From Podarcis melisellensis (taxonomy: Eukaryota): 64,000 bases of DNA. Below are positions 1 through 63,944 of this stretch, piece after piece. Under the pieces are notes generated by a model that was given only the letters and a program-made list of their open reading frames with translations, made no database searches and was not told the DNA's origin. The stretch is taken from NCBI GenBank assembly GCA_964234715.1, contig OZ174286.1. One strand, written 5' to 3'. How positions within the stretch are numbered: position 1 is the first letter of the stretch; every line of letters begins with the position of its first letter. The position numbers were made by a program, and so were the translations under genes.

Positions 1-680
1 CAACAACATTGAGGGACTGGATCCAGTGACACCAGCTTTTCAAAGTCTGATAATAATTTATATCTCTTCTAGGTAATCCCACTGTCCCCCAGAGGGAGGC
101 ACTGCCCATTTTGGGAAGCACTGAATTAGACGAAGGAAACAAGACAGGGAAAGCCCTGCATGAAACTGAGGTCCCGAACCATTTAGCAGTTTATGAAACT
201 GAGCCTGCACACAATTGAGCAGGACACTCAAAGCATCCATTCTTTAAAAGGGTTGCAGGCTAGCGTTACCAAAAGTTATCGAACCCCAGCATGTCTTTCC
301 ATAAGCAAAAACAGTCTGGTATTCGAAGATATGCCACCATTTTAATGGCAGGAAGAAATGTGCTACAAACTGCCAAATGAACACCCCAATTTGAACTTGG
401 AAAATCCTTTTGAACATACGCTGATCAAGGTTGTTTGATGACACCCCCCACCTCGAAAAGTCAAGGAATTCAAACCCAGTCATTGAAATTAGCAAAAATA
501 ATCACAACTCATGGAAAATTAAAAAAAAACAAGGTCATGTTAGAAAAAACGACAGAAGATAAACATAACTTAATAAAAGTGCATGTGCTATGTACAGGTA
601 TTCTTTCTATATTTGAGTGTTAGAACAACCTGATTTTATGCAATTTAAGACACGGACAGGTCAAGCCTGAAGCTCTTTTG

Positions 681-920
681 CTGCTTCTATTCCTTTCTAT
701 GGGTTTGTATTCTGCACCCTAACCAAGCTGCCTCAATTTCAACTCAATGCCACAAAATCATTGAGTACAGTTGCTTAAACACAACCACCCCTGAATTCAT
801 TTCAACTGCGAAACACAGGTTTTGGGTTGTTGTTTTTTCATAGGATAAAAATGAACCTAAGTTTCCCTTTAAGTAGGCATCAGTTGATAATTTTCACTTA
901 ATTCCCTGAAATTCAGGATA
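681..920. repeat. Flank sequence duplicated in inverted orientation at 62353-62592
   Basis: Hand alignment with the reverse complement of 62353-62592: 240 bp, no indels, 5 mismatches. Confidence 0.95.
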
Positions 921-1276
921 AAGGTAAAGGTAAAGGGACCCCTGACCATTAGGTCCAGTCGTGGCCAACTCTGGGGTTGCGGCGCTCATCTCGCTTTACT
1001 GGCCAAGGGAGCCAGCATACAGCTTCCGGGTCATGTGGCCAGCATGATTAAGCTGCTTCTGGCGAACTAGAGCAGCGCATGGAAAAGCCGTTTACCTTCC
1101 CGTTGGAGCGGTACCTATTTATCTACTTGCACTTTGACGTGCTTTTGAACTGCTAGGTGGGCAGGAGCAGGGACTGAGCAACGGGAGCTCACTCCATCGC
1201 TGGGATTCGAACCGCCGACCTTCTGATCGGCAAGTCCTAGGCTCTGTGGTTTAACCCACAGCGCCACCCGCGTCCC
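921..1276 (-). mobile_element. Sauria SINE, full length
   Basis: tRNA-like head GGGACGCGGGTGGCGCTGTGG...GGTTCGAATCC and (ACCTTT)n tail; 14-bp TSD TGAAATTCAGGATA at 907-920 and 1280-1293. Confidence 0.93.
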
Positions 1277-2561
1277 TTTTGAAATTCAGGATACTTTCCC
1301 CAAATATTCTGCTTTAAATTCTGAACCCTTAAAATCCATGCAGCATGTGGGGAGCAGCCATTGTACGAAGCGATCTGTCTGCCCTCACAAGTAAAGCATC
1401 ATGGGAAATGTGGTTTCAATCATGTGAAAATATTGCTCATCGTCATATCAAATGGCTAGAAGCAATATTTAAATACACGAACATTGTAAACATAAGCTTC
1501 TTCTCACAGTAATACAAAGCTAGCAAAACACTTGGACCATATATAAACTAACCTGCATCTTACTATGGATAGAAATGTGTTTGGGCTGCAGGTCAACAGC
1601 CTCAGGTGTGGCATACAAAAGGTACAAACCAATCATAAAGATAGTGGGAAATCAGAATGGGCAGTAAACAGTTCAAATGGGCAGTAAACAGTTCAAATTT
1701 GCAAGTTGGCACAATGATTTGGGTTCATCATGGAGGTCTTAAGATCTCAAAGTCATCCACCACTAAAGGATGCAAGGCTGTTGCATTCAGCTGACCATTC
1801 CAAACATGTTTAATGGCTCTGCTGCTTAATTAGTGTAACGAAGAAACAAAGCATCTCACAGTAAGTGCCTGAAATACAGCACCAAGAATTGAAAAAAATT
1901 CCACCTCCTTTTACTGAATAAAGGCACAGTCCCACAAAGATCATGATTGCAAAATAATCACCAGATAAAATAGCATCCAAGTATGGCTCTAAAACCAAGG
2001 AGCTGGGCTCTGGGCCAGTGAAATCTCATGCTACACTAAGCTAGACATTAATTTGCCAAAGCGCCTTTTACCGCTGAGTCAAAATGGGGCTTGGAGATGT
2101 CCCATGAGCACTTTTGTCCCCCAAAACTTTTTGGCATGCCTTTGCAAAAAAATGTGAGGAAGAGGGAACATGTCCTTGTTGCCAGTTCTCCTTCATCCCA
2201 ATCTAGTCAAGTAAAGAGCAGACAAGCCAGGCAAAATGCGATAGGGGTTGCACATCTGGAAGGAAGCATTGCTGAAAGTAATATAGTACAAATGGACAAC
2301 ATCATAACCAGATGTGCATCTTAAGTTGCAAATTTTGTAGAATGAAAGCCCCAAATACCTGGAAGACTTTCTCCATCCCTACAGAACCTCTCAGGTGTTG
2401 AGATCAGCAGAGGGGCCCTCTTGGTAGTGCCTCCACCCTTAAAGGCTTGCAGGGAGCGGTGGCCCGGAAGAGGGCCTCCTCTGCGGTGGCCCCTAAGCTA
2501 TGGAACTCCACACTCACATAACAGCAGCTGGCACCTTCATTGTACAGCTTCCAATGATTGC

Positions 2562-2681
2562 CGAAGCTACCAGCATGAGTTTGACCAAACTGCGGGAGGC
2601 AATGGAAGACAGGAGTGCCTGGCGTGCTCTGGTCCAGGGGGTCACCAAGAGTTGGACATGACTAAACGACTAAACAAACAA
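2562..2681 (+). mobile_element. BovB (RTE) LINE 3' end fragment
   Basis: Matches the 3' ends of the copies ending at 48019 and 53970 (CAGCATGAGTTTGACCAAACTG...GACTAAACGACTAAAC). Confidence 0.85.
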
Positions 2682-2772
2682 GAGCAAGACAGGGAGCATT
2701 AGCCCAGCAAACTAGTCAAGTGTCCAATATGTGATCCTTCATTGCCTGTGTAGTCACTCATGATCCACAATA

Positions 2773-2953
2773 TCATAGAAATGTAGAATTGGAAGGGACC
2801 CTGAGGGTCATCTGGCTCAATGCCTTCCAATGCAGGAATCATACCTGTTTCAGAGTCATGAGTTTGGGCCCCTTGTTAGGCATAATATTCCTGCAAGCGG
2901 TGGGTTGGCCTAGATGACCCTGTAGCCCCTTCCAGCTCTAAAATTCTATCATT
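2773..2953. mobile_element. Two short CR1-tail-type repeats in opposite orientation
   Basis: CATAGAA...TTGGAAGGGACC...TCATCT on one side and its reverse complement (CTAGATGACC...CCTTCCAGCTCT...ATTCTAT) on the other. Relatives at 19963-20060, 27745-27810 and 43302-43420. Confidence 0.6.
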
Positions 2954-4044
2954 CTGGTGTGGTTGTTTGGTTTTGTAAAGTGTGTGTGTTGAAGCAGGGT
3001 AACAACACCTGCAAAAAAAAATAAGTTCTAAATATTGGGAATAGTGGATAGGATTTTTCAAAGATTCCACTCACTCCCCACCCCCACCCCATGCACTGGA
3101 AAAGGAACCTCACCTAAATTTGGCACAGCATTACTTTTTTTTCAAACTAATTTGCTCTAAAAGTGCAATTAGCAGGCAATATACATGTGAGTAATATTAA
3201 AGTACACCTAAAACACATTTTTGTCTGTAGACGTTCAGAGAACCTAATGGGTCTTCTGGCTGAAATGCAAAAACTGCCCCTGAATTCAAATTCAGGTGCT
3301 GGAGAAAACACTTAATCTGACACTTAATTCACAAATGTTACTTCTGGATCGCAAGTTTCTCACGGAGTCCAGTAATTCCAAAGCAAATAATGATAAATCG
3401 GCAAATTCAACTTTTAGAACTAGCTTTGATGTAAGACACATGGTTATGCCGAGGTAAATTTAGAATGGCACTGAACTACTGTGTTCAACACCAGAAAAAC
3501 CAAAGGTAAGGAGGACTGGATTCTTCCTATAAACTATTACATCACATCTAAAACTTGTTTTATGAAGTAATTCTTGGTACTAAATCAATCATATTCAGCT
3601 AAATAGACTGTATAATCATAGGAACAATGAAATTCAAACATTGCGGCTGTTTCTTTTTTCAGTTATATTAAATATGTACAGTGTATCACAGGCATCTAAA
3701 ACTGGCTTTTCAAAGAGAGGTGCCTCACGCTTTTCCTCTTAAGTATCTGTTTAGAAAAGACAGTAGAAATAGAAGATGATTTCACTTCCAGGTCACTGGC
3801 ACAAACTGACAGTGATTCCAATTAAGTCAATAGGTGATTGCCACTAGTTTAGATGGCCTGAAAAAGAGATTAGGCAAACTGATGCATTTTTAGTCCGGTT
3901 ATTAGCCACAATAGTCCAATGGCACCTCTACGTTCAGAAGCAGTAGTATATCTCAAAAATGCAAAGTTGCTGGAAACAGAAAAGAGCTGCTGCATCTGGG
4001 TCACTGCTGGAAGAAACAGAAAACTGGAAAATATGGATACACCA

Positions 4045-8173: not shown

Positions 8174-11100
8174 CCCATACCCCACACCCCCTCCATAATG
8201 TGAAGGACTTTTCACCCGGGGGGGGGGGCGTTGATGGACACCTCTTTGCCCAGGCTCCATGTCACCAGCTGATGCCGTTGTGGCAGCAAAATTCTCAGAA
8301 CCATGATGTCAAAGTCAGCTGTTCCTCGGAGTGGGAGATCTTGACACGGGGATTACATTAACACATTTGTGTGCTAAAGAACAGGCAGTTCTACAGACTT
8401 GCAAAGGGCTGTGCGGCTTTCAACCAGCGTATTCTTGCTTAAAGAGGTGGGGAGGAAGATAGCAACACAGTGACATCTGCAGGATTAAACATGCTATTAA
8501 CTGCAAACAAGACTTCATGTAGCAGATGGAACTGGGTTTGGCGAGGGTGGGGAGGAATCAAGACTTGCTAAGCATGGGGGTTACTCCCTCCATGCAAGAG
8601 CTTCCCATAAGGTGTCAGAGTTCACCACTGTTGAAAAGGGAATACTGGATGAGAGACCTTCCGTCTGCTGCAGAAATATAGTTTTCATATCCTGAGGTGG
8701 CAATGGCCTGCAATTGCTTGCTTAGGAAAAACTTATTCATGGCCTTTCCTGTAGGGCAGCGTGCACTAAAGGAAAATCTACAAGGCTTCCTGCAAAGGCA
8801 GAGGTCACCTTCTGATTTACCACTCGTTGTGCATTATTAGGCAAGCGCACTGGGTGGCTTGCATTCTAAAAAGTGGGTTGTGACTGGGCTGGTGGGAAGA
8901 GGCCAGGGGTGAACAACTAGCAGGGATGGATCTGAATAACTAGATGAAGGTTTAATAGGCAACATGCATAAGTAATACATGTGGACGACACCACAGTGCT
9001 CACTTATAACTTCCAAGCTAATGTCCACATGCTATCTGCCTTTGCCATAGGTGGATAGGACTTGGAGTACATGAACAAGCCCAGAGTACAAGATCCTGTA
9101 GGAGAGATGGGCGCTCCCATTTCTGGAGAAAGGGAAACAGGAAAGGGGGGGCGCAACTTCCATCCTGGCGCAAATCCCACAAAACAGCCCCTTCCCCTCT
9201 CATGCCCAAGACTCATCTTCCTCTTGGCATTTGGTAAAGGAGGCCCAAGTTGTCTGTAGCCTATTGCAACTCTGAACTTCCCTCGCTTTATTATTTGGAA
9301 AGCTGCATTAACTTTTCTCTTAACGTCAGTGCTGATGCCCTTTTACTCCTCTCCCTCAGTGCTGATTAACCAGCAGGGTGCAGATCCTCTGAAAACCACT
9401 TGCAAAGGCAGTCAGCTAGCCAACCTCAAAACAAAAATGTAAGCCAGATGATATTGGGGCTCCCGGAGTGAATCCACATGGTAGCACGCAGGTGGCCACT
9501 CCTGAAACAGCAAGCCACCTGTGGTTTATTTAAAGCGCTGGCTCCTATCATGGCATCTGATACCAGCTAAATGTGGCAATTAAAGGGCATTATTTGCAAT
9601 ACAGATAGTTGCAGGTGCTTAGCACCAGAAGTATCTCATTCTTGAAATGCTCTGACTAACCCCCCCCCCCAACCTGTGGTCCTTGCTGGAAGGGAGGAGG
9701 ACAACAACACATTTTAGAGGAAGCTGCCACTGCCATATAGCATCCTCCACCACCCCGACAGCTGTGGGGCAACAGGCCAGAAAGTGCGTCGGAAGCTGAA
9801 GCTCGCTCTTGGTTTCGAAGGACCCATGCCAAAACGTCTGGCCCTGTGACAGAGCCTGCTCCACTGCTCTGGATTGTGTTACTTAATGTAAAAGGCAGAC
9901 ACAAAAGCTACAGCTAAAAATAAAAGCTTCTAAATCCCCACGGGAGTAATTACTGCAAACTCTTAATCCCCTGGAATTATTTGGTTATCGCAGCATTAGC
10001 TCCTGAGCTGGGACCCAGGCAGATCTGCTACAAGAGAACCATTCATACCGGTATAAATTTAAACTTTGTCTGAAATCATCAGCTTGTGCCCAGTGAATCA
10101 AACTCCTGGTACAGGTGTAACACTGTAATTTCCACAGTAACACACTGGCTGAAACTTGTTTCTGTGTGTGCTAGGGATGTTCTGCAACTTCCCCTTTCAG
10201 GTGCCTCTCCCAAAACTTTAGCTGCTTGGTATACACTGCTTTATAAGAATAAGTTCAGGATGGGAAGCAGGCACACAGACGATGACTCAAGTGCGGGGAA
10301 ATATGGCAAGTGCAGGGCAGCACCATACTGGGACAACTGTGAATTCTGCTGGAGCTCTGGTTAAGTTAGGGTAGATGGTGATCTCACATTCTGAGTTGCT
10401 GAGCTGAGAATCAACACAGATCCATCACAGTCGCTGCTCTCCGCATAAAATTCATTCATGCCATCAAATTTGTTATACCTTCCTAAAAAGAGGTGGCAAG
10501 TTTTGTCTAAGGCAGACAGTGGACCCAAATTGGAAGAAGACATATACTCAAATTTTGTTCAGTGTGGCTTCTACAAGGTTGAGGAGTAAGAAGATATCAC
10601 AATATATGCAAACTTGCTAATACTGTTGGTAGGCATTTCACACCTTTTTTTTTAAAAAAAGGATACACAAACATTTGAGATGTACATGTGAACTTGCAAT
10701 GTGCACATGCTGCAAACTTGTTTCTGACAATGTACATTTTCTAGGGAAGTGGAAGTGCTGTGGCTCCCTACCATGTGTACAGACAATATGTATATGCTTT
10801 TCCCAGTGTGTACAGAAGCACCAAGTTAAGGAAGATGCTGTATCTGACGAATGATTGGTAGCCTCAAATGTTAAGAATACCGAAGAACCTCAAAACTTTT
10901 ATTTGAGGCTAAATTCTATCAGAATCATAACAATACAATGGTTTTTAATTCCTTCCACTTGCCTCGTTTCCTCAAGCTCTGCACCTATCATCAATAGTTT
11001 TGATTTATTTTCACAAATATGAGAGCAACAAGGGGAGGCTCAGGTTCATTCCCCAACATCTCCAGAAATCTCAGGGAGCAGGGCTGGGAAGAACCTCTGG

Positions 11101-35304: not shown

Positions 35305-36082
35305 GTACAGCCGTTTGGATACTTTCATAGGTTCTCTTTGGAAAAGTTAGTCGTATTAGAAGTATGAGGTAGGACATGCAGCTTGATTCAGTGGGACTTC
35401 CTAGTAACTGTTCACGAGAGCAGCCTGTGAGATGTCTTTTCGAGGAAGAGGAAGACAGCACACCTGCTCAGAGCTTTAAACATTGTGCACCTTTTTCACA
35501 TCAAGCAATGGGATCCCTACCCCTCCCAGATTGCAGGGCCAGACAGTATTCAGCCCTTTGGATATTATGCGTTGTATAGTCCCTGCATATGAAGATGCTT
35601 CTTTGTTTTGAGACTTTGCATCTTTTTAGCTGTCAAGATATTGGTGAAGTTCTAGACTTCCCACAACACAAGCCAGTTTCAGTTTGCAGTAAGAGGTTAG
35701 CAGAAAGTTGTTAGGTATGCACACATTACTGTCTCACGTGCAGGGTATGCACCTGCATATTTTCAGATGAGAGACCCTTGTAAATCACTGGGTGTTTCAG
35801 AGTACTTGGAGAGTGGAGAAATAGACGTTGATGCACAAATAGCTTTCTGTGAAAGCCTGATTAATGTCTGTGCTGGAAAATAGGTCTAGGTTTGGGTGTG
35901 TATGACTTCAGAGTGCAAAAGTAATTTTCTGAATGACTGTGATACTAATGTTTTGGGGCTCCTGAGATGGTAGGAGAGGGGGGCCCACTCCTTTACAAAT
36001 AGGCTTCTCCTACATAACTACTGTTCCTGCAGCTATTCAGCTGCCTACTTCTAACTTCCTGGTTTCCCCTCCCTCCCTGTAG

Positions 36083-36350
36083 GACTCCATTTCACGCAGA
36101 TGTCTTCCGCTCCTACAGCTGGTCGGCCAACATTTGTGGGAAAAAGAAATGGCTAGTCTTCCCCCCAGGGCAGGAGGAGTTCCTCCGCGATCGCCATGGT
36201 CACTTGCCATTTGACATCACTGCACCTGACTTGAAGAAGAGTAACCTTTACCCTCGCTTTGCCCAAAGCAGCCCTCCTGTTGAAATCATACAGGAAGCTG
36301 GAGAGATTGTCTTCATCCCGAGCGGATGGCACCATCAGGTTTACAATTTG
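36083..36350 (+). CDS. JMJD4: JMJD4 coding exon 4 (JmjC catalytic core)
   Basis: TPFHADVFRSYSWSANICGKKKWLVFPPGQEE...QEAGEIVFIPSGWHHQVYNL contains the HxD...H Fe(II) ligands; acceptor ccctgtag, donor gtaaga. Confidence 0.97.
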
Positions 36351-36769
36351 GTAAGATGTTTCAGACAGCCACAGCCTTGGGGTAATGCACCATTAAGTGG
36401 ATCTGGGCGATGCTCATCGGGGACTGATAGGGCTTAAGGCCAGAAGCCGAACAGTAGATGGAGCCACAGCCAGTGACAGGCGGATCCGATTCTAGTGTGT
36501 CTGCATCCTCTGCCCTGCTGAGCTCTAGAACGGCAACACAGATAGAGGAGGGAGCTGATAAGCGGTGCTACCTGATGGACTAGGTAGGCAGAGGCTTTGA
36601 AGCAGGTCTCTACTGGCGACTGGATAAGCTGAGTTTGTATGCTGCATGATGTCTTATGTTCACTATGGGAATCCAGCTGAATAGGCCAGCAGGCAAAAAA
36701 CTGTGACTCCCTTCAACCCCTTGCTTAAACATGTGGGATAGCCATTTGGACTGTCCTTGTTTTTTCCAG

Positions 36770-43665: not shown

Positions 43666-43952
43666 CTGGTTTGTGGAGGGGAAGGCGAGATTATTCTGTT
43701 AGAACAGCAAAGTCTTATGACATTTTAAAGACATCCTAAAGCTTTCATGGGCCAGTGTCCATTTTGTCAGATGTAAAAAGGCATTATCCTCATTTGTACA
43801 TACAGTGGTATAGATGCGGGCAAAAAGTATTAGTTAGTGAGGTCAAAGCCAACCTCGCCCCCTAAAAACAACAACAAAAAGCAGACTGGTAATTAGGTTA
43901 AATGTGCCAAGGATAAAACATCCCAGCATTGTTAACCTAATTAATACCTGTA

Positions 43953-44293
43953 AAAAAGGGTAAAGGGCCCCCTGACCATTAGGTCCAGTTGTGACTGACT
44001 CGGGTTGCGGCGCTCATCTCGCTTTATTGGCCGAGGGAGCCGGCGTACAGCTTCCGGGTCATGTGGCCAGCATGACTAAGCCGCTTCTGGCGAACCAGAG
44101 CAGTGCACGGAAACACCGTTTACCTTCCCATTAGAGCGGTACCTATTTATCTACTTGCACTTTGATGTGCTTTCTATCTGCTAGGTTGGCAGGAGCAGGG
44201 ACCGAGCAACGGGAGCTCGCCCCATCGCAGGCATTCAAACTGCTGACCTTCTGATCGGCAAGTCCTAGGCTCTATGGTTTAACCCACAGCGCC
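43953..44293 (-). mobile_element. Sauria SINE
   Basis: Same body as 921-1276; TSD ATACCTGTA at 43944-43952 and 44294-44302. Confidence 0.92.
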
Positions 44294-44362
44294 ATACCTG
44301 TAGTGGAGTTCAAACCCATTATCTTGGTTTAGGCCAGGATTAAACGTCTTGACAAGTTACTA

Positions 44363-46414: not shown

Positions 46415-46864
46415 CTTGAGCTACAGGGGAGGCAATTTCAAAAGAGCTTGCACACCAATGTTCTGGATCCCTTCCTCCTGCCTTAGGGGCGGGGGGGGGG
46501 TGAGCACCCTATTGCAACAGATTAATAAATATCAGGCTTACTAGCTGCTTTGCTTCTCAATATTCTCTGGTTGGCCTCTGTTATTTTTCTCTTACCAATA
46601 GAGAACCCACATAAGGACTCTATATGGGCTCTTGGGCACCCCATAAGGGAAAAGGAGCAGGTTTTTTTTCTTATAACACCCCCACCCCCAGCTGGGAAAA
46701 ACCAGAAGAAACTTATGATGCTAAGCTCCAAAACAAACCAGCAACAACGGAACAGTTCCAGAGCTATTTATACTCCAATCTGCAGACACGGAAATGGACC
46801 CTCCTGAGGACCTGATCCAGCCACATTGGAAAGGATGAGCAAGAAGGAGACCAGCTTTCCTTAC

Positions 46865-47014
46865 CTTGCCCGTGTCACAACATACATCAGCAGCGGCAAG
46901 AGGTCGTCCATTGGCAGGCTATATTCCTTTTCCAGCACCCGGTTCACTGTCTTCTCAATTTCCTCATATGTCTTTTGCAGGATGTCCAGTTTTTCCCGCG
47001 GGTCAACAGTAGTG
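46865..47014 (-). CDS. ALS2CL: ALS2CL exon (VPS9 domain)
   Basis: TTVDPREKLDILQKTYEEIEKTVNRVLEKEYSLPMDDLLPLLMYVVTRA contains the VPS9 DDLLP motif; acceptor ttttgcag, donor gtaagg. Confidence 0.96.
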
Positions 47015-47473
47015 CTGCAAAAAGGTGAAGATCTGGTGAGTATCAACGTAAGCCCTAAAACACTCAAACCAGAAAGCATATGAAAATCCTTGGGGAGGAG
47101 AGCATGGGCTTAGACCTCGATTTGGATAGGGCCTATGATCCAGTGCCTTGGGAATCTCTGCTTTCCTTTTGGTGAATGAGCAAGTTGCTAGTCCCTATGG
47201 AGGAAGGGGGAACTTTTGTCAACCTGCAGTCATGCTGGGCAGGCTGGAGGGCAATAGGGTTGGGGGCGGCTGAGTTAAGAGAGTCAGACCAAAGCTCATG
47301 GCCCAACTCAGCTCATAGGAAGTTACTATTTTTCAACCGAACCCACCTCACAGGGTTGTTGTGAGAATAAGGAGGTGCAGAACCATGCAAGCTGCCTCCA
47401 ACACCATAGAAGGAGGAAAAATAAAAATAAAATTGGTTAAAGCTGACCAAAAGTCCAGAGGTACCATTATTAT

Positions 47474-57975: not shown

Positions 57976-58661
57976 TCTGCCTGGACACTGAGGTCCAGCT
58001 CCGAGGGCCTTCTGGCGGTTCCCTACCTGCGAGAAGCCAAGTTACAGGGAACCAGACAGAGGGCCTTCTCAGTGGTGGCACCTGCCCTGTGGAACGCCCT
58101 CCCAGCAGATGTCAAAGAGAAGAACAACTACCAGACGTTTAGAAGACATCTGAAGGCAGACCTGTTTAGGGAAGCTTTTAATGTTTAACAGACTAACGGT
58201 AAAGGGACCCTTGACCATTAGGTCCAGTCGTGGCCAACTCTGGGGTTGCGACGCTCATCTCGCTTTATTAGCCAAGGGAGCCGGCGTACAGCTTCCAGAT
58301 CATGTGGCCAGCATGACTAAGCCGCTTCTGGCGAACCAGAGCAACGCACAGAAAAGCCGTTTACCTTCCCGCCAGAGCGGTACCTATTTATCTACTTGCA
58401 CTCTGTGCTTTTGAACTGCTAGGTTGGCAGGAGCAGGGACCGAGCAACGGGAGCTCACCCCCTCGCGGGGATTCGAACCGCTGACCTTCCGATCGGCAAG
58501 TCCTAGGCTCTGTGGTTTAACCCACAGCGCCACCCGCGTCCCTGTGTTTAACAGACTACTGCATTTTAATACTTTGTTGGAAGCCGCCCAGAGTGGCTGG
58601 GGAGACCCAGCCAGATGGGTGGGGTATAAATAAATAAATTATTCTTATTATTTATTATTAT
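57976..58661 (+). mobile_element. L2 LINE 3' fragment nested in the antisense L2, itself split by a SINE
   Basis: TLRSSSEGLLAVP..REAKLQGTRQRAFSVVAPALWNALP; nearly the same as 51430-51770. Confidence 0.85.
58196..58542 (-). mobile_element. Sauria SINE, full length
   Basis: TSD TGTTTAACAGACTA at 58182-58195 and 58545-58558. Confidence 0.93.
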
Positions 58662-58826: not shown

Positions 58827-59000
58827 CTGTGGCAGAAGAGATATTCCTGGGACTTCCTCAGCTCTTTGCTCGTCTGAACGTGGAAGCCCATGAAACCCTC
58901 CTCCGTTTCCCCTTGACCGCCTGAGCGGATGAACTCCAGGAAGGGGCTGCAGAGACCGTCCCATCTTTTCTCAACCGGGAATACTTCCTGACCCAGCTGG
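58827..59000 (-). CDS. ALS2CL: ALS2CL exon
   Basis: QLGQEVFPVEKRWDGLCSPFLEFIRSGGQGETEEGFMGFHVQTSKELRKSQEYLFCHR; acceptor ttgttcag, donor gtgagg. Confidence 0.92.
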
Positions 59001-61657: not shown

Positions 61658-61782
61658 AGTTTCTCTGCGGTGTCATCCTGTTCACCGGAAGTGTCCAGGA
61701 TTCCTTGAGTTTGCAGCCCGTGGGTCGATTTGCTGCTGAACGTGCCCTCCAGGGTGAATCCATTTGGGAAGGTCAGTTTGCC
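61658..61782 (-). CDS. ALS2CL: ALS2CL exon
   Basis: GKLTFPNGFTLEGTFSSKSTHGLQTQGILDTSGEQDDTAEKL; acceptor gttttcag, donor gtaagt. Confidence 0.9.
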
Positions 61783-61996
61783 CTGAAAACCATCCCCAAA
61801 AGCCAGAGTTAATTTTTCATTCATTCATTCAAAACCATTCATACCCTGGATTGTATAGCAGCAACAGAATTTCGGGGAGCCCGGCATCATTGGCAAGGAT
61901 GGCATTTCCTGTGGCAAATTGAGATTCCTGCTTTGCGGGGGGAATGGGAAAGCCTTATCTAAATCATCCCTATTGGGCCATGGTACACACAACTCT

Positions 61997-62352
61997 GGGA
62001 CGCGGGTGGCACTGTGGGTTAAACCCCAGAGCCTAGGACTTGCCGATCAGAAGGTCGGCGGTTTGAATCCCCTCGACGGGGTGAGCTCCCGTTGCTCGGT
62101 CCCTGTTCCTGCCAACCTAGCAGATAGAAAGCACGTCAAAGTGCAAGTAGATAAATGGGTACCGCTCCGGCGGGAAAGTAAACGGCGTTTCCATGCGCTG
62201 CTCTGGTTCGCCAGAAGCGGCTTAGTCATGCTGGCCACATGACCCGGAAGCTGTACGCCGGATCGCTCAGCAAATAAAGCGAGATGAGCGCTGCAACCCC
62301 AGCGTCGGTCACAACTGGACCTAATGGTCAGGGGTCCCTTTACCTTTACCTT
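61997..62352 (+). mobile_element. Sauria SINE, full length, no matching TSD
   Basis: GGGACGCGGGTGGC head to CCTTTACCTTTACCTT tail; its 3' flank is the copied segment of 681-920. Confidence 0.93.
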
Positions 62353-62592
62353 TATCCTGAATTTCAGGGAATTAAGTGAAAATTATCAACTTATGCCTAC
62401 TTAAAGGCAAACTTAAGTTCATTTTTATCCTATGAAAAAACAACAACCCAAAACCTGTGTTTCACAGTTGAAATGAATTCAGGGGTGGTTGTGTTTAAGC
62501 AACTGTACTCAATGATTTTGTGGCATTGAGTTGAAATTGAGGCAGCTTGGTTAGGGTGCAGAATACAAACCCATAGAAAGGAATTGAAGCAG
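62353..62592. repeat. Inverted copy of 681-920
   Basis: Same alignment; begins with the reverse complement of the TSD of the SINE at 921-1276. Confidence 0.95.
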
Positions 62593-62594
62593 AG

Positions 62595-63295
62595 CAGGGG
62601 TTGTCAAGAGCTCGTCCTACACTCGAGTAGGACCCTGGCAGAGACACATGCCCAACTGGCATGTTCTCTCCCTCCTGGTAAATCGTTCGGGAGCTTCAAA
62701 AGCTTTCTTCTGCCCAAACATCACAGTGACCGATGCCAACAGACACAGGCACACTTAGGGATCTGCAGAGTCTTCGCATCATGCGTACCAGACCTCAGTA
62801 ACTCAGCATTTTGGCTAATCTACTTTATTTACATATAAACACACATGGAGCACTGCAACATGGCTCCCTCTCTCTCTAGCATCAGACAGCAAAGAGAAAG
62901 AACAAAGGACAATAGTCCCACTTCACGGAACACAGCAACACAAACATCCTGTCTCCGTCACTTCCCACTCTGTGGAATGAAAACATACACCATCATGTGA
63001 TAGACAACAATCCCATGACTGCAATCATGGAGCAGGAATTCTAACAGGGCTCAGCAATTTTTTTCAGCAGGGGGCCGGTCCACTGTCCCTCAGACCTTGT
63101 GGGGGGCCGGACTATATTTTGTTTTGGTGGGGGGGGGGAATGAACGAATTCCTATGCCTCACAAATAACCCAGAGATGCATTTTAAATAAAAGGACACAT
63201 TCTACTCATGTAAAAACATGCTGACCATGTGTGGGCCGGATTGAGAAGGCGATTGGGCCGGATCTGGCCCTCGGGCCTTAGTTTGCCTACCCATG
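62595..63295. mobile_element. hAT-type MITE interrupted by the LTR
   Basis: Rejoined left end CAGGGGTCAGCAA..., right end ...GTTTGCCTACCCATG, with internal GGGCCG repeats. Confidence 0.72.
62602..63046 (-). mobile_element. Probable solo LTR (445 bp)
   Basis: TGT...ACA termini; 5-bp near-TSD GGGGT/GGGCT; minus-strand AATAAA at 62824-62829; splits the TIR of a hAT MITE. Confidence 0.6.
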
Positions 63296-63442
63296 TCCAA
63301 GAGCAAAACAGGTCCTCCTGTGAAGCTTAAATACCCCAAGGAAGTGACACAGCAGCAAAGGGGAAAAGGTTGAGGAGGGAAAAGGAAAAAGAAGCAAACA
63401 TGAAGTTCTTCATGTTACGAGGTTCTCATGATGACCAGAGAG

Positions 63443-63866: not shown

Positions 63867-63944
63867 TTTGCCGACAAAAGTCAAGTCTCTGGTGAAGTTT
63901 CCCACAAAGATTGAGTCGTCTTCCAGGAGGAGTGTCCCAGGTCC
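63867..63944 (-). CDS. ALS2CL: ALS2CL internal exon (MORN-repeat region); gene continues beyond window end
   Basis: GPGTLLLEDDSIFVGNFTRDLTFVGK; acceptor ctgcag, donor gtgagt. Confidence 0.9.

Follow-up and report, generated by a model that had tools for sequence, protein, structure and literature searches.

The 64-kb window (the whole stretch of DNA analysed here) holds a 240-bp segment twice, each time next to the 3' tail of a SINE, and the two sites are 61 kb apart. The question raised by this locus is how the SINE at one site (the recipient, R) came to carry the flank of the SINE at the other (the donor, D).

Structure of the donor and recipient sites

A self-comparison of the window gave an ungapped inverted match of 681-1276 to 62592-61997 with 39 mismatches; the 240-bp flank accounts for 5 of these and the 356-bp SINE body for the other 34. 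The donor flank (681-920, minus strand) is unique DNA located 3' of D and starts with the 3' TSD copy of D (907-920); the captured copy lies at 62353-62592 (plus strand). The preliminary description of this DNA had reported an inverted copy with 5 mismatches and no indels, two segments that directly follow a SINE 3' tail, and a T5 run at 62422-62426. The alignment bore out all of these: a SINE tail adjoins both 681-920 and 62353-62592, and TTTTT begins at flank position 70 (62422). Two genome matches had been predicted for 681-920, and in the 1.57-Gb genome 2 of 2 candidates matched, so the segment is not part of a many-copy extended SINE subfamily. At four of the five flank mismatches (62392-62464 versus 809-881), G is on the SINE-sense strand of the donor; these differences are unpolarised and the sample is too small for a test, and strand-biased damage or copying errors are possibly behind them.

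The SINE family is presumably Sauria (Squam1). The ACCTTT tail seen here agrees with the (AC2T3)n tail named in the accessible text of PMC10702118. D (921-1276, minus strand; full length, haplotype 278G/313C) is bordered by a perfect 14-bp TSD (907-920 and, as the 5' copy, 1280-1293), and three additional bases are present at 1277-1279. Its insertion site includes a near-perfect 13-bp palindrome (905-917) that overlaps the TSD. R (61997-62352, plus strand; full length, haplotype 278A/313T) is without a TSD of its own (score 0), and the TSD sequence of D is present on its 3' side only; the distribution of TSD copies was thus as first described. Since D has both TSD copies and R only the 3' copy of D, the flank of D is native and that of R is the copy. 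A missing TSD is in itself common (82 of 189 young SINE copies score below the TSD threshold). When 61970-61996 was compared with the sequence from 62593 onward, no new TSD around R and its flank was found, and the captured flank has no tail at its far end, where the copy ends in unique sequence.

The far junction (62591-62594, plus strand) consists of an AG common to donor and target followed by another AG, and these are the last four of the eight bases of the left TSD of an older MITE (62595-63295, plus strand; right TSD 63296-63303) whose family makes 8-bp TSDs. The captured copy accordingly stops 2 bp short of the MITE. The MITE has short terminal inverted repeats. In five other two-ended copies the duplications are 8 bp long, with 0-2 mismatches, and only the MITE at R keeps just the last four of eight on its left side. 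The AG microhomology at 62591-62592 and the partial MITE TSD, both noted earlier, are therefore sound. We assume that the MITE belongs to the hAT superfamily. From these four of eight bases only, we infer a deletion at the recipient; both outer flanks of the site are single-copy, so no repeat is available from which the size of the lost DNA could be read. A solo LTR (62602-63046, minus strand; 445 bp, TG...CA, 5-bp TSD with one mismatch) is inserted in the left end of the MITE and splits it. Three more full-length copies of this LTR at 89-91% identity, each with a 5-bp duplication, were seen in 464 kb of this genome.

The intron in which R lies belongs to a gene on the minus strand. The exon upstream of this intron (63867-63944, minus strand; 78 bp, AG/GT, phase 0), the next exon (61658-61782, minus strand; in frame, collinear) and that at about 58830-59000 are on one strand, ordered and in frame on both sides of R, and a VPS9 exon follows further on (46864-47109). 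We take the gene to be ALS2CL, a name that fits. A Pfam search of 130 of the 187 candidate frames gave VPS9 and JmjC only. The open frame at 36018-36434 (plus strand) matches JmjC/Cupin_8 (E 1e-14) and marks a second gene, facing the VPS9 gene. Rfam gave 0 matches at 61900-62700. The locus is intronic and probably neutral.

Probable separate origin of the SINE bodies and age of the event

Divergence was modelled with 148 young full-length SINE copies from 1.86 Mb of neighbouring DNA, in which the per-site divergence from the consensus was 0.187 at CpG sites, 0.028 at other C/G sites and 0.014 at A/T sites. A copy of the same age as the SINEs should have 9.7 flank mismatches, and 5 were seen (P=0.08); with CpG and base class modelled, the same-age test of flank against body was not significant (P=0.17). 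The earlier hand count of about 30-35 differences in 356 body positions was accurate (34 were counted), but the statement that the bodies differ far more than the flanks did not survive this correction. The relative age of the event was estimated as 0.45 of the SINE age (interval, 0.12-1.14). Because flank and body do not differ significantly in age, the event may date from the active period of the SINE, when reverse transcriptase was abundant.

Relationships among the SINE copies were judged from the variants they share and from the distances between pairs. Positions 278 and 313, both polymorphic among the young copies, separate R from D. Two independent changes at these sites have a probability of about 6e-4, versus 0.22 for an unrelated body, and the likelihood ratio against descent from D is about 390. 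The body of R would thus have an origin separate from that of D; it is sites 278 and 313 that argue for this, the raw divergence by itself being inconclusive. Of the 18+18 derived states of R and D, one is common to both, a CpG decay; the two differ at 16 of 267 non-CpG positions, close to the median of all pairs. Sister bodies after the removal of CpG sites had been named beforehand as evidence against flank capture; on these numbers R and D are not sisters.

The private variant cluster of R was unique genome-wide at 1 mismatch. No sister copy or young source element for the R body was found among the 40 of 4729 candidates scored, the best match being 94%. The run of 39 bp identical between R and D (62314-62352, plus strand; consensus 318-356) is the interval that holds the homology junction, and it has no informative site; consensus positions 1-67 and 318-356 do not discriminate between D and a resident copy. 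As for the changes in R itself, 8 of 16 are transversions, and at least 8 transversions were reached by 4 of the 148 copies. Repair-induced hypermutation of R is not claimed; the cluster of 3 changes in 11 bp was matched in 19 of the 148 copies.

A third SINE copy and the shared tract

The preliminary description had noted variants common to R and the SINE at 43953-44293. This third SINE (M; 43953-44294, minus strand) is truncated by 10 nt at its 5' end, has the haplotype 278A/313T and its own 8-bp TSD (43945-43952 and 44295-44302), and sits 18 kb from R in inverted orientation. Its tract at 44167-44194 (minus strand) is identical to a 28-bp run of R (62107-62134, plus strand; consensus 111-138) and contains the private double variant T128A+C130A (TTTCTATCTG variant), which occurs at exactly 2 places in 1.57 Gb, R and M. 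The sharing is thus real, but it does not mark a subfamily or lineage. With 32,745 genomic counts of the consensus word and single-site carriers numbering 93 (128A) and 208 (130A), 0.44 double carriers are expected genome-wide; among the 17 neighbours within 70 kb the expectation is about 2e-4, in a test of R and M that was post hoc and prompted by the earlier observation. Among 185 young copies, R and M are the sole pair sharing two doubleton variants. They share five derived states in all, of which those besides the doublet (68, 313 and 317) are common variants, and 13 of the 18 derived states of R and 17 of the 22 of M are unshared.

The 28-bp run is a conversion tract, copied in one direction or the other, and R is a mosaic of three SINE copies, with a private tract in common with M, and a tail and flank in common with D. 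Since the M tract sits in the one copy that has a captured flank, a single multi-template repair is favoured, but the two tracts do not separate by age and two events are possible. A general excess of conversion between neighbours was not seen at 5-70 kb, where variant sharing was at background (11 pairs versus 9.8 expected); below 5 kb there was a weak excess (3 versus 0.64 expected, P=0.03). The sharing of 174A by D and M, and of 191T by D and the SINE at 58542, concerns single variants and is compatible with chance. Elsewhere, the rare 128A is also carried by three SINE copies within 28 kb (C15:16,243,335-16,271,008), which suggests local tandem duplication or conversion there.

Recurrence in the neighbouring DNA

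In C12:54,676,001-56,540,000 (1.86 Mb), all 325 SINE copies, 283 of which have a 3' end, were screened for flanks in common. The 3' filter was passed by 29 pairs, and 6 had at least 95% identity; of these six, 3 (R included) belong to the class in which a SINE carries its neighbour's TSD and flank, 2 belong to a local segmental duplication and 1 is a shared repeat. One of the other 23 pairs was inspected and is a shared repeat. The class frequency is therefore 3 of 283 SINE copies (about 1%), with two cases besides R.

In case 2, the recipient (C12:56,269,447, minus strand; L110:8100-9900) and the donor (C12:56,096,094, plus strand; L093:6094-7180) are 173 kb apart and inverted. The recipient carries the TSD of its neighbour together with a flank of about 290 bp (16 mismatches), which is two-copy genome-wide, and the private variant 304G is common to donor and recipient in the SINE 3' part. 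The far junction runs by microhomology into a third SINE fragment, so that three SINE copies are involved here too, and the host MITE of the recipient is without its 3' part. The donor flank is interrupted by a LINE-like piece of about 430 bp that is absent from the copy and was probably inserted after copying. The case is bracketed by an old direct duplication of about 370 bp that includes the MITE 5' part (L110:8250-8640 and 9448-9830; 34 mismatches in 346 aligned positions). In case 3 (L021:2845-4232), the donor is a young SINE (C12:55,922,845), and the recipient, 818 bp downstream in the same orientation, has an older-type body (83% to the consensus) with the donor's TSD and 203-bp flank (5 mismatches); on the donor itself, 5 bp of the 3' TSD copy are missing.

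Each of the three donors shares its recipient's chromosome and lies no more than 173 kb away, in a screen that could show local donors only (1.86 Mb). With random donors, at most 0.1 in-region case would be expected even if all 82 TSD-less copies were chimeric. The flanks of TSD-less control copies were single-copy in 2 of 2. Genome-wide extrapolation by means of the consensus word gave 680-1,020 events (intervals, 80-3,000), the number of SINE copies with a 3' end being put at about 97,000.

Probable break repair and alternative explanations

We consider it probable that R acquired the TSD and 240-bp flank of D by break repair, in which a broken end invaded nearby SINE copies, was copied past the tail and was rejoined by microhomology. 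A germ-line break 3' of the resident R would have been resected into R, exposing a single strand that would then have paired with inverted SINE copies nearby. The short converted tract would stem from pairing with M (at 44 kb), in the same or a separate event. The end would then be extended on D, from within the 39 bp common to the tails, for 240 bp into unique DNA; the extended end would be released and joined via the 2-bp microhomology inside the MITE TSD, with the loss of R's own 3' flank. SINE-primed copying with a microhomology-mediated far end, as first proposed for this locus, is still the best reading, although the private tract shared with a third SINE makes the event look more complex than one invasion. 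Rather bolder, and tentative, is the proposal that a single break in the germ line drew on two different inverted SINE neighbours, at 18 and 61 kb, to give a three-way mosaic, and that about 1% of SINE copies bear the TSD and flank of a neighbour as a scar, several hundred to a few thousand genome-wide, as a fossil record of ectopic homology search.

The strongest competitor, which we regard as unlikely, is that a read-through RNA of D served as template for reverse transcription from a nick beside the MITE and that the cDNA recombined with the resident SINE, the intervening DNA being deleted. The age of the event overlaps SINE activity, but the far end is tailless, and 70 nt after the start of the flank there is a T5; T runs terminate Pol III transcription. 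This route leaves the tract shared with M unexplained, and the nearness of all three donors (same chromosome, at most 173 kb) is unlike random retrotransposition, although only 1.86 Mb was screened. The identical anatomy is known from Alu, for which the accessible text of Wagstaff et al. (2012, PMC3415434) gives 6 of 226 new insertions as chimeras whose 5' part was genomic; these lacked direct repeats and had lost local DNA.

Another possibility, which is less probable again, is that an empty site first received the whole of D with its 240 bp, by transduction or duplication, and that gene conversion from M subsequently replaced the body. R begins exactly at SINE base one, R and M share 278A/313T and five derived states, and positions 1-67 and 318-356 cannot separate D from a resident copy, all of which suit this explanation. 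It requires two events, however, and leaves most derived states of both R (13 of 18) and M (17 of 22) unshared; there is no TSD and no tail, and the case 3 recipient (0.8 kb from its donor) is clearly an older resident copy. For 3' transduction in general, a new TSD around element and flank, a tail at the far end and descent of the body from the source were all sought, and none was found (TSD score 0, no far-end tail, and the ratio of about 390 against body descent), in keeping with the initial judgement that it fits less well.

An assembly artefact joining two SINE copies is very improbable: the junction does lie within a high-copy repeat, but the two copies of the flank differ at 5 of 240 positions, the outer flanks are single-copy, the far junction is inside a TSD remnant, and the host exons keep their frame through the locus. 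An inversion with staggered breaks, a mechanism known from Drosophila, likewise leaves inverted duplicates at two sites, but a 61-kb inversion would split the host exons, whose continuity on both sides of R largely refutes it and leaves it with hardly any probability.

Relation to known repair systems

Break repair of the kind favoured above is closest to repair-mediated duplication (Pace et al. 2009, PMC2671141), which, as far as the accessible text describes it, likewise produces two-copy segments of 50-600 bp on the same chromosome, with microhomology and deletion at the acceptor and no poly(A) or TSD. The segment at R (240 bp, where at least 50 bp is asked for) is found at exactly one other place and has breakpoint microhomology and a deletion without tail or TSD, but the donor, at 61 kb and not within 5 kb, puts it in the 'distant' class, outside the strict set. 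In that text, the confident set has donors within 5 kb and priming by 2-9 nt, whereas one junction here has at least 39 bp of SINE homology. The same text gives 20 acceptors as chimeras of two donors; no reptile is among its genomes ('lizard', 0 occurrences in the accessible text).

Homologous recombination that ends by microhomology, with homologous template switching, has been shown in mammalian cells (Hartlerode et al. 2016, PMC5104497, accessible text). [quoted passage not shown] In multi-invasion-induced rearrangement (Reitz et al. 2023, PMC10499017), one resected end meets two donors, and the accessible part of that paper proposes chimeric repeats as its signature; R has this two-donor chimerism (tract with M, tail and flank with D). 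The cited system is yeast with long homologies, however, and no translocation or matched reciprocal chimera was seen here; its steep drop with short homology in yeast, reported in the same part, counts against multi-invasion at this locus.

Alu insertion via recombination with a resident Alu (PMC3415434) is alike in its resident 5' body, incoming 3' part, absence of direct repeats and local loss, but the cases set out in the accessible text mostly have the source tail at the far end and no captured neighbour flank, unlike R. Retrotransposon-anchored segmental duplications (Alu breakpoints; SVA-lcr16a, Damert 2022, PMC9132208) are similar in that recombination between elements gives the breakpoint that duplicates a flank; the duplicons in the text available are of kilobase scale, against 240 bp here. 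PMC7980453 and PMC12350158, in their accessible parts, are background on the topic only. A description of such SINE-flank capture in squamates was not found in the literature searched, the scope of which excluded most subscription journals and supplements; this is not proof that none has been published.

The observation is probably explained by known repair biology, namely repair-mediated duplication. What is new beyond the first reading of the locus is the three-copy mosaic and the recurrence at about 1% of SINE copies. From a swapped TSD, donor, recipient and direction can be read with no need of an outgroup; the class can thus be counted genome-wide, and the locus is of value as a clear specimen of it. 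Repair can produce look-alikes of SINE 3' transduction, and among the TSD-less SINE copies there are some mosaics, with consequences for the dating of subfamilies and for phylogenies built on insertion markers. If the bolder proposal is true, a single assembly would hold, in these scars, a record of how far ectopic homology search reaches in a reptile germ line, which orientation it favours and how it behaves with several templates.

Other local duplications

At about C12:54,735,000-54,749,000 (L203-L205) there is a young local segmental duplication, whose direct and inverted blocks have 95-99.7% identity. In the repeat-masked 1.86 Mb, 38 of 65 matches were locally two-copy, with lengths of 50-620 bp and at least 92% identity; some of these 38 may be further repair duplications and others low-copy transposons.
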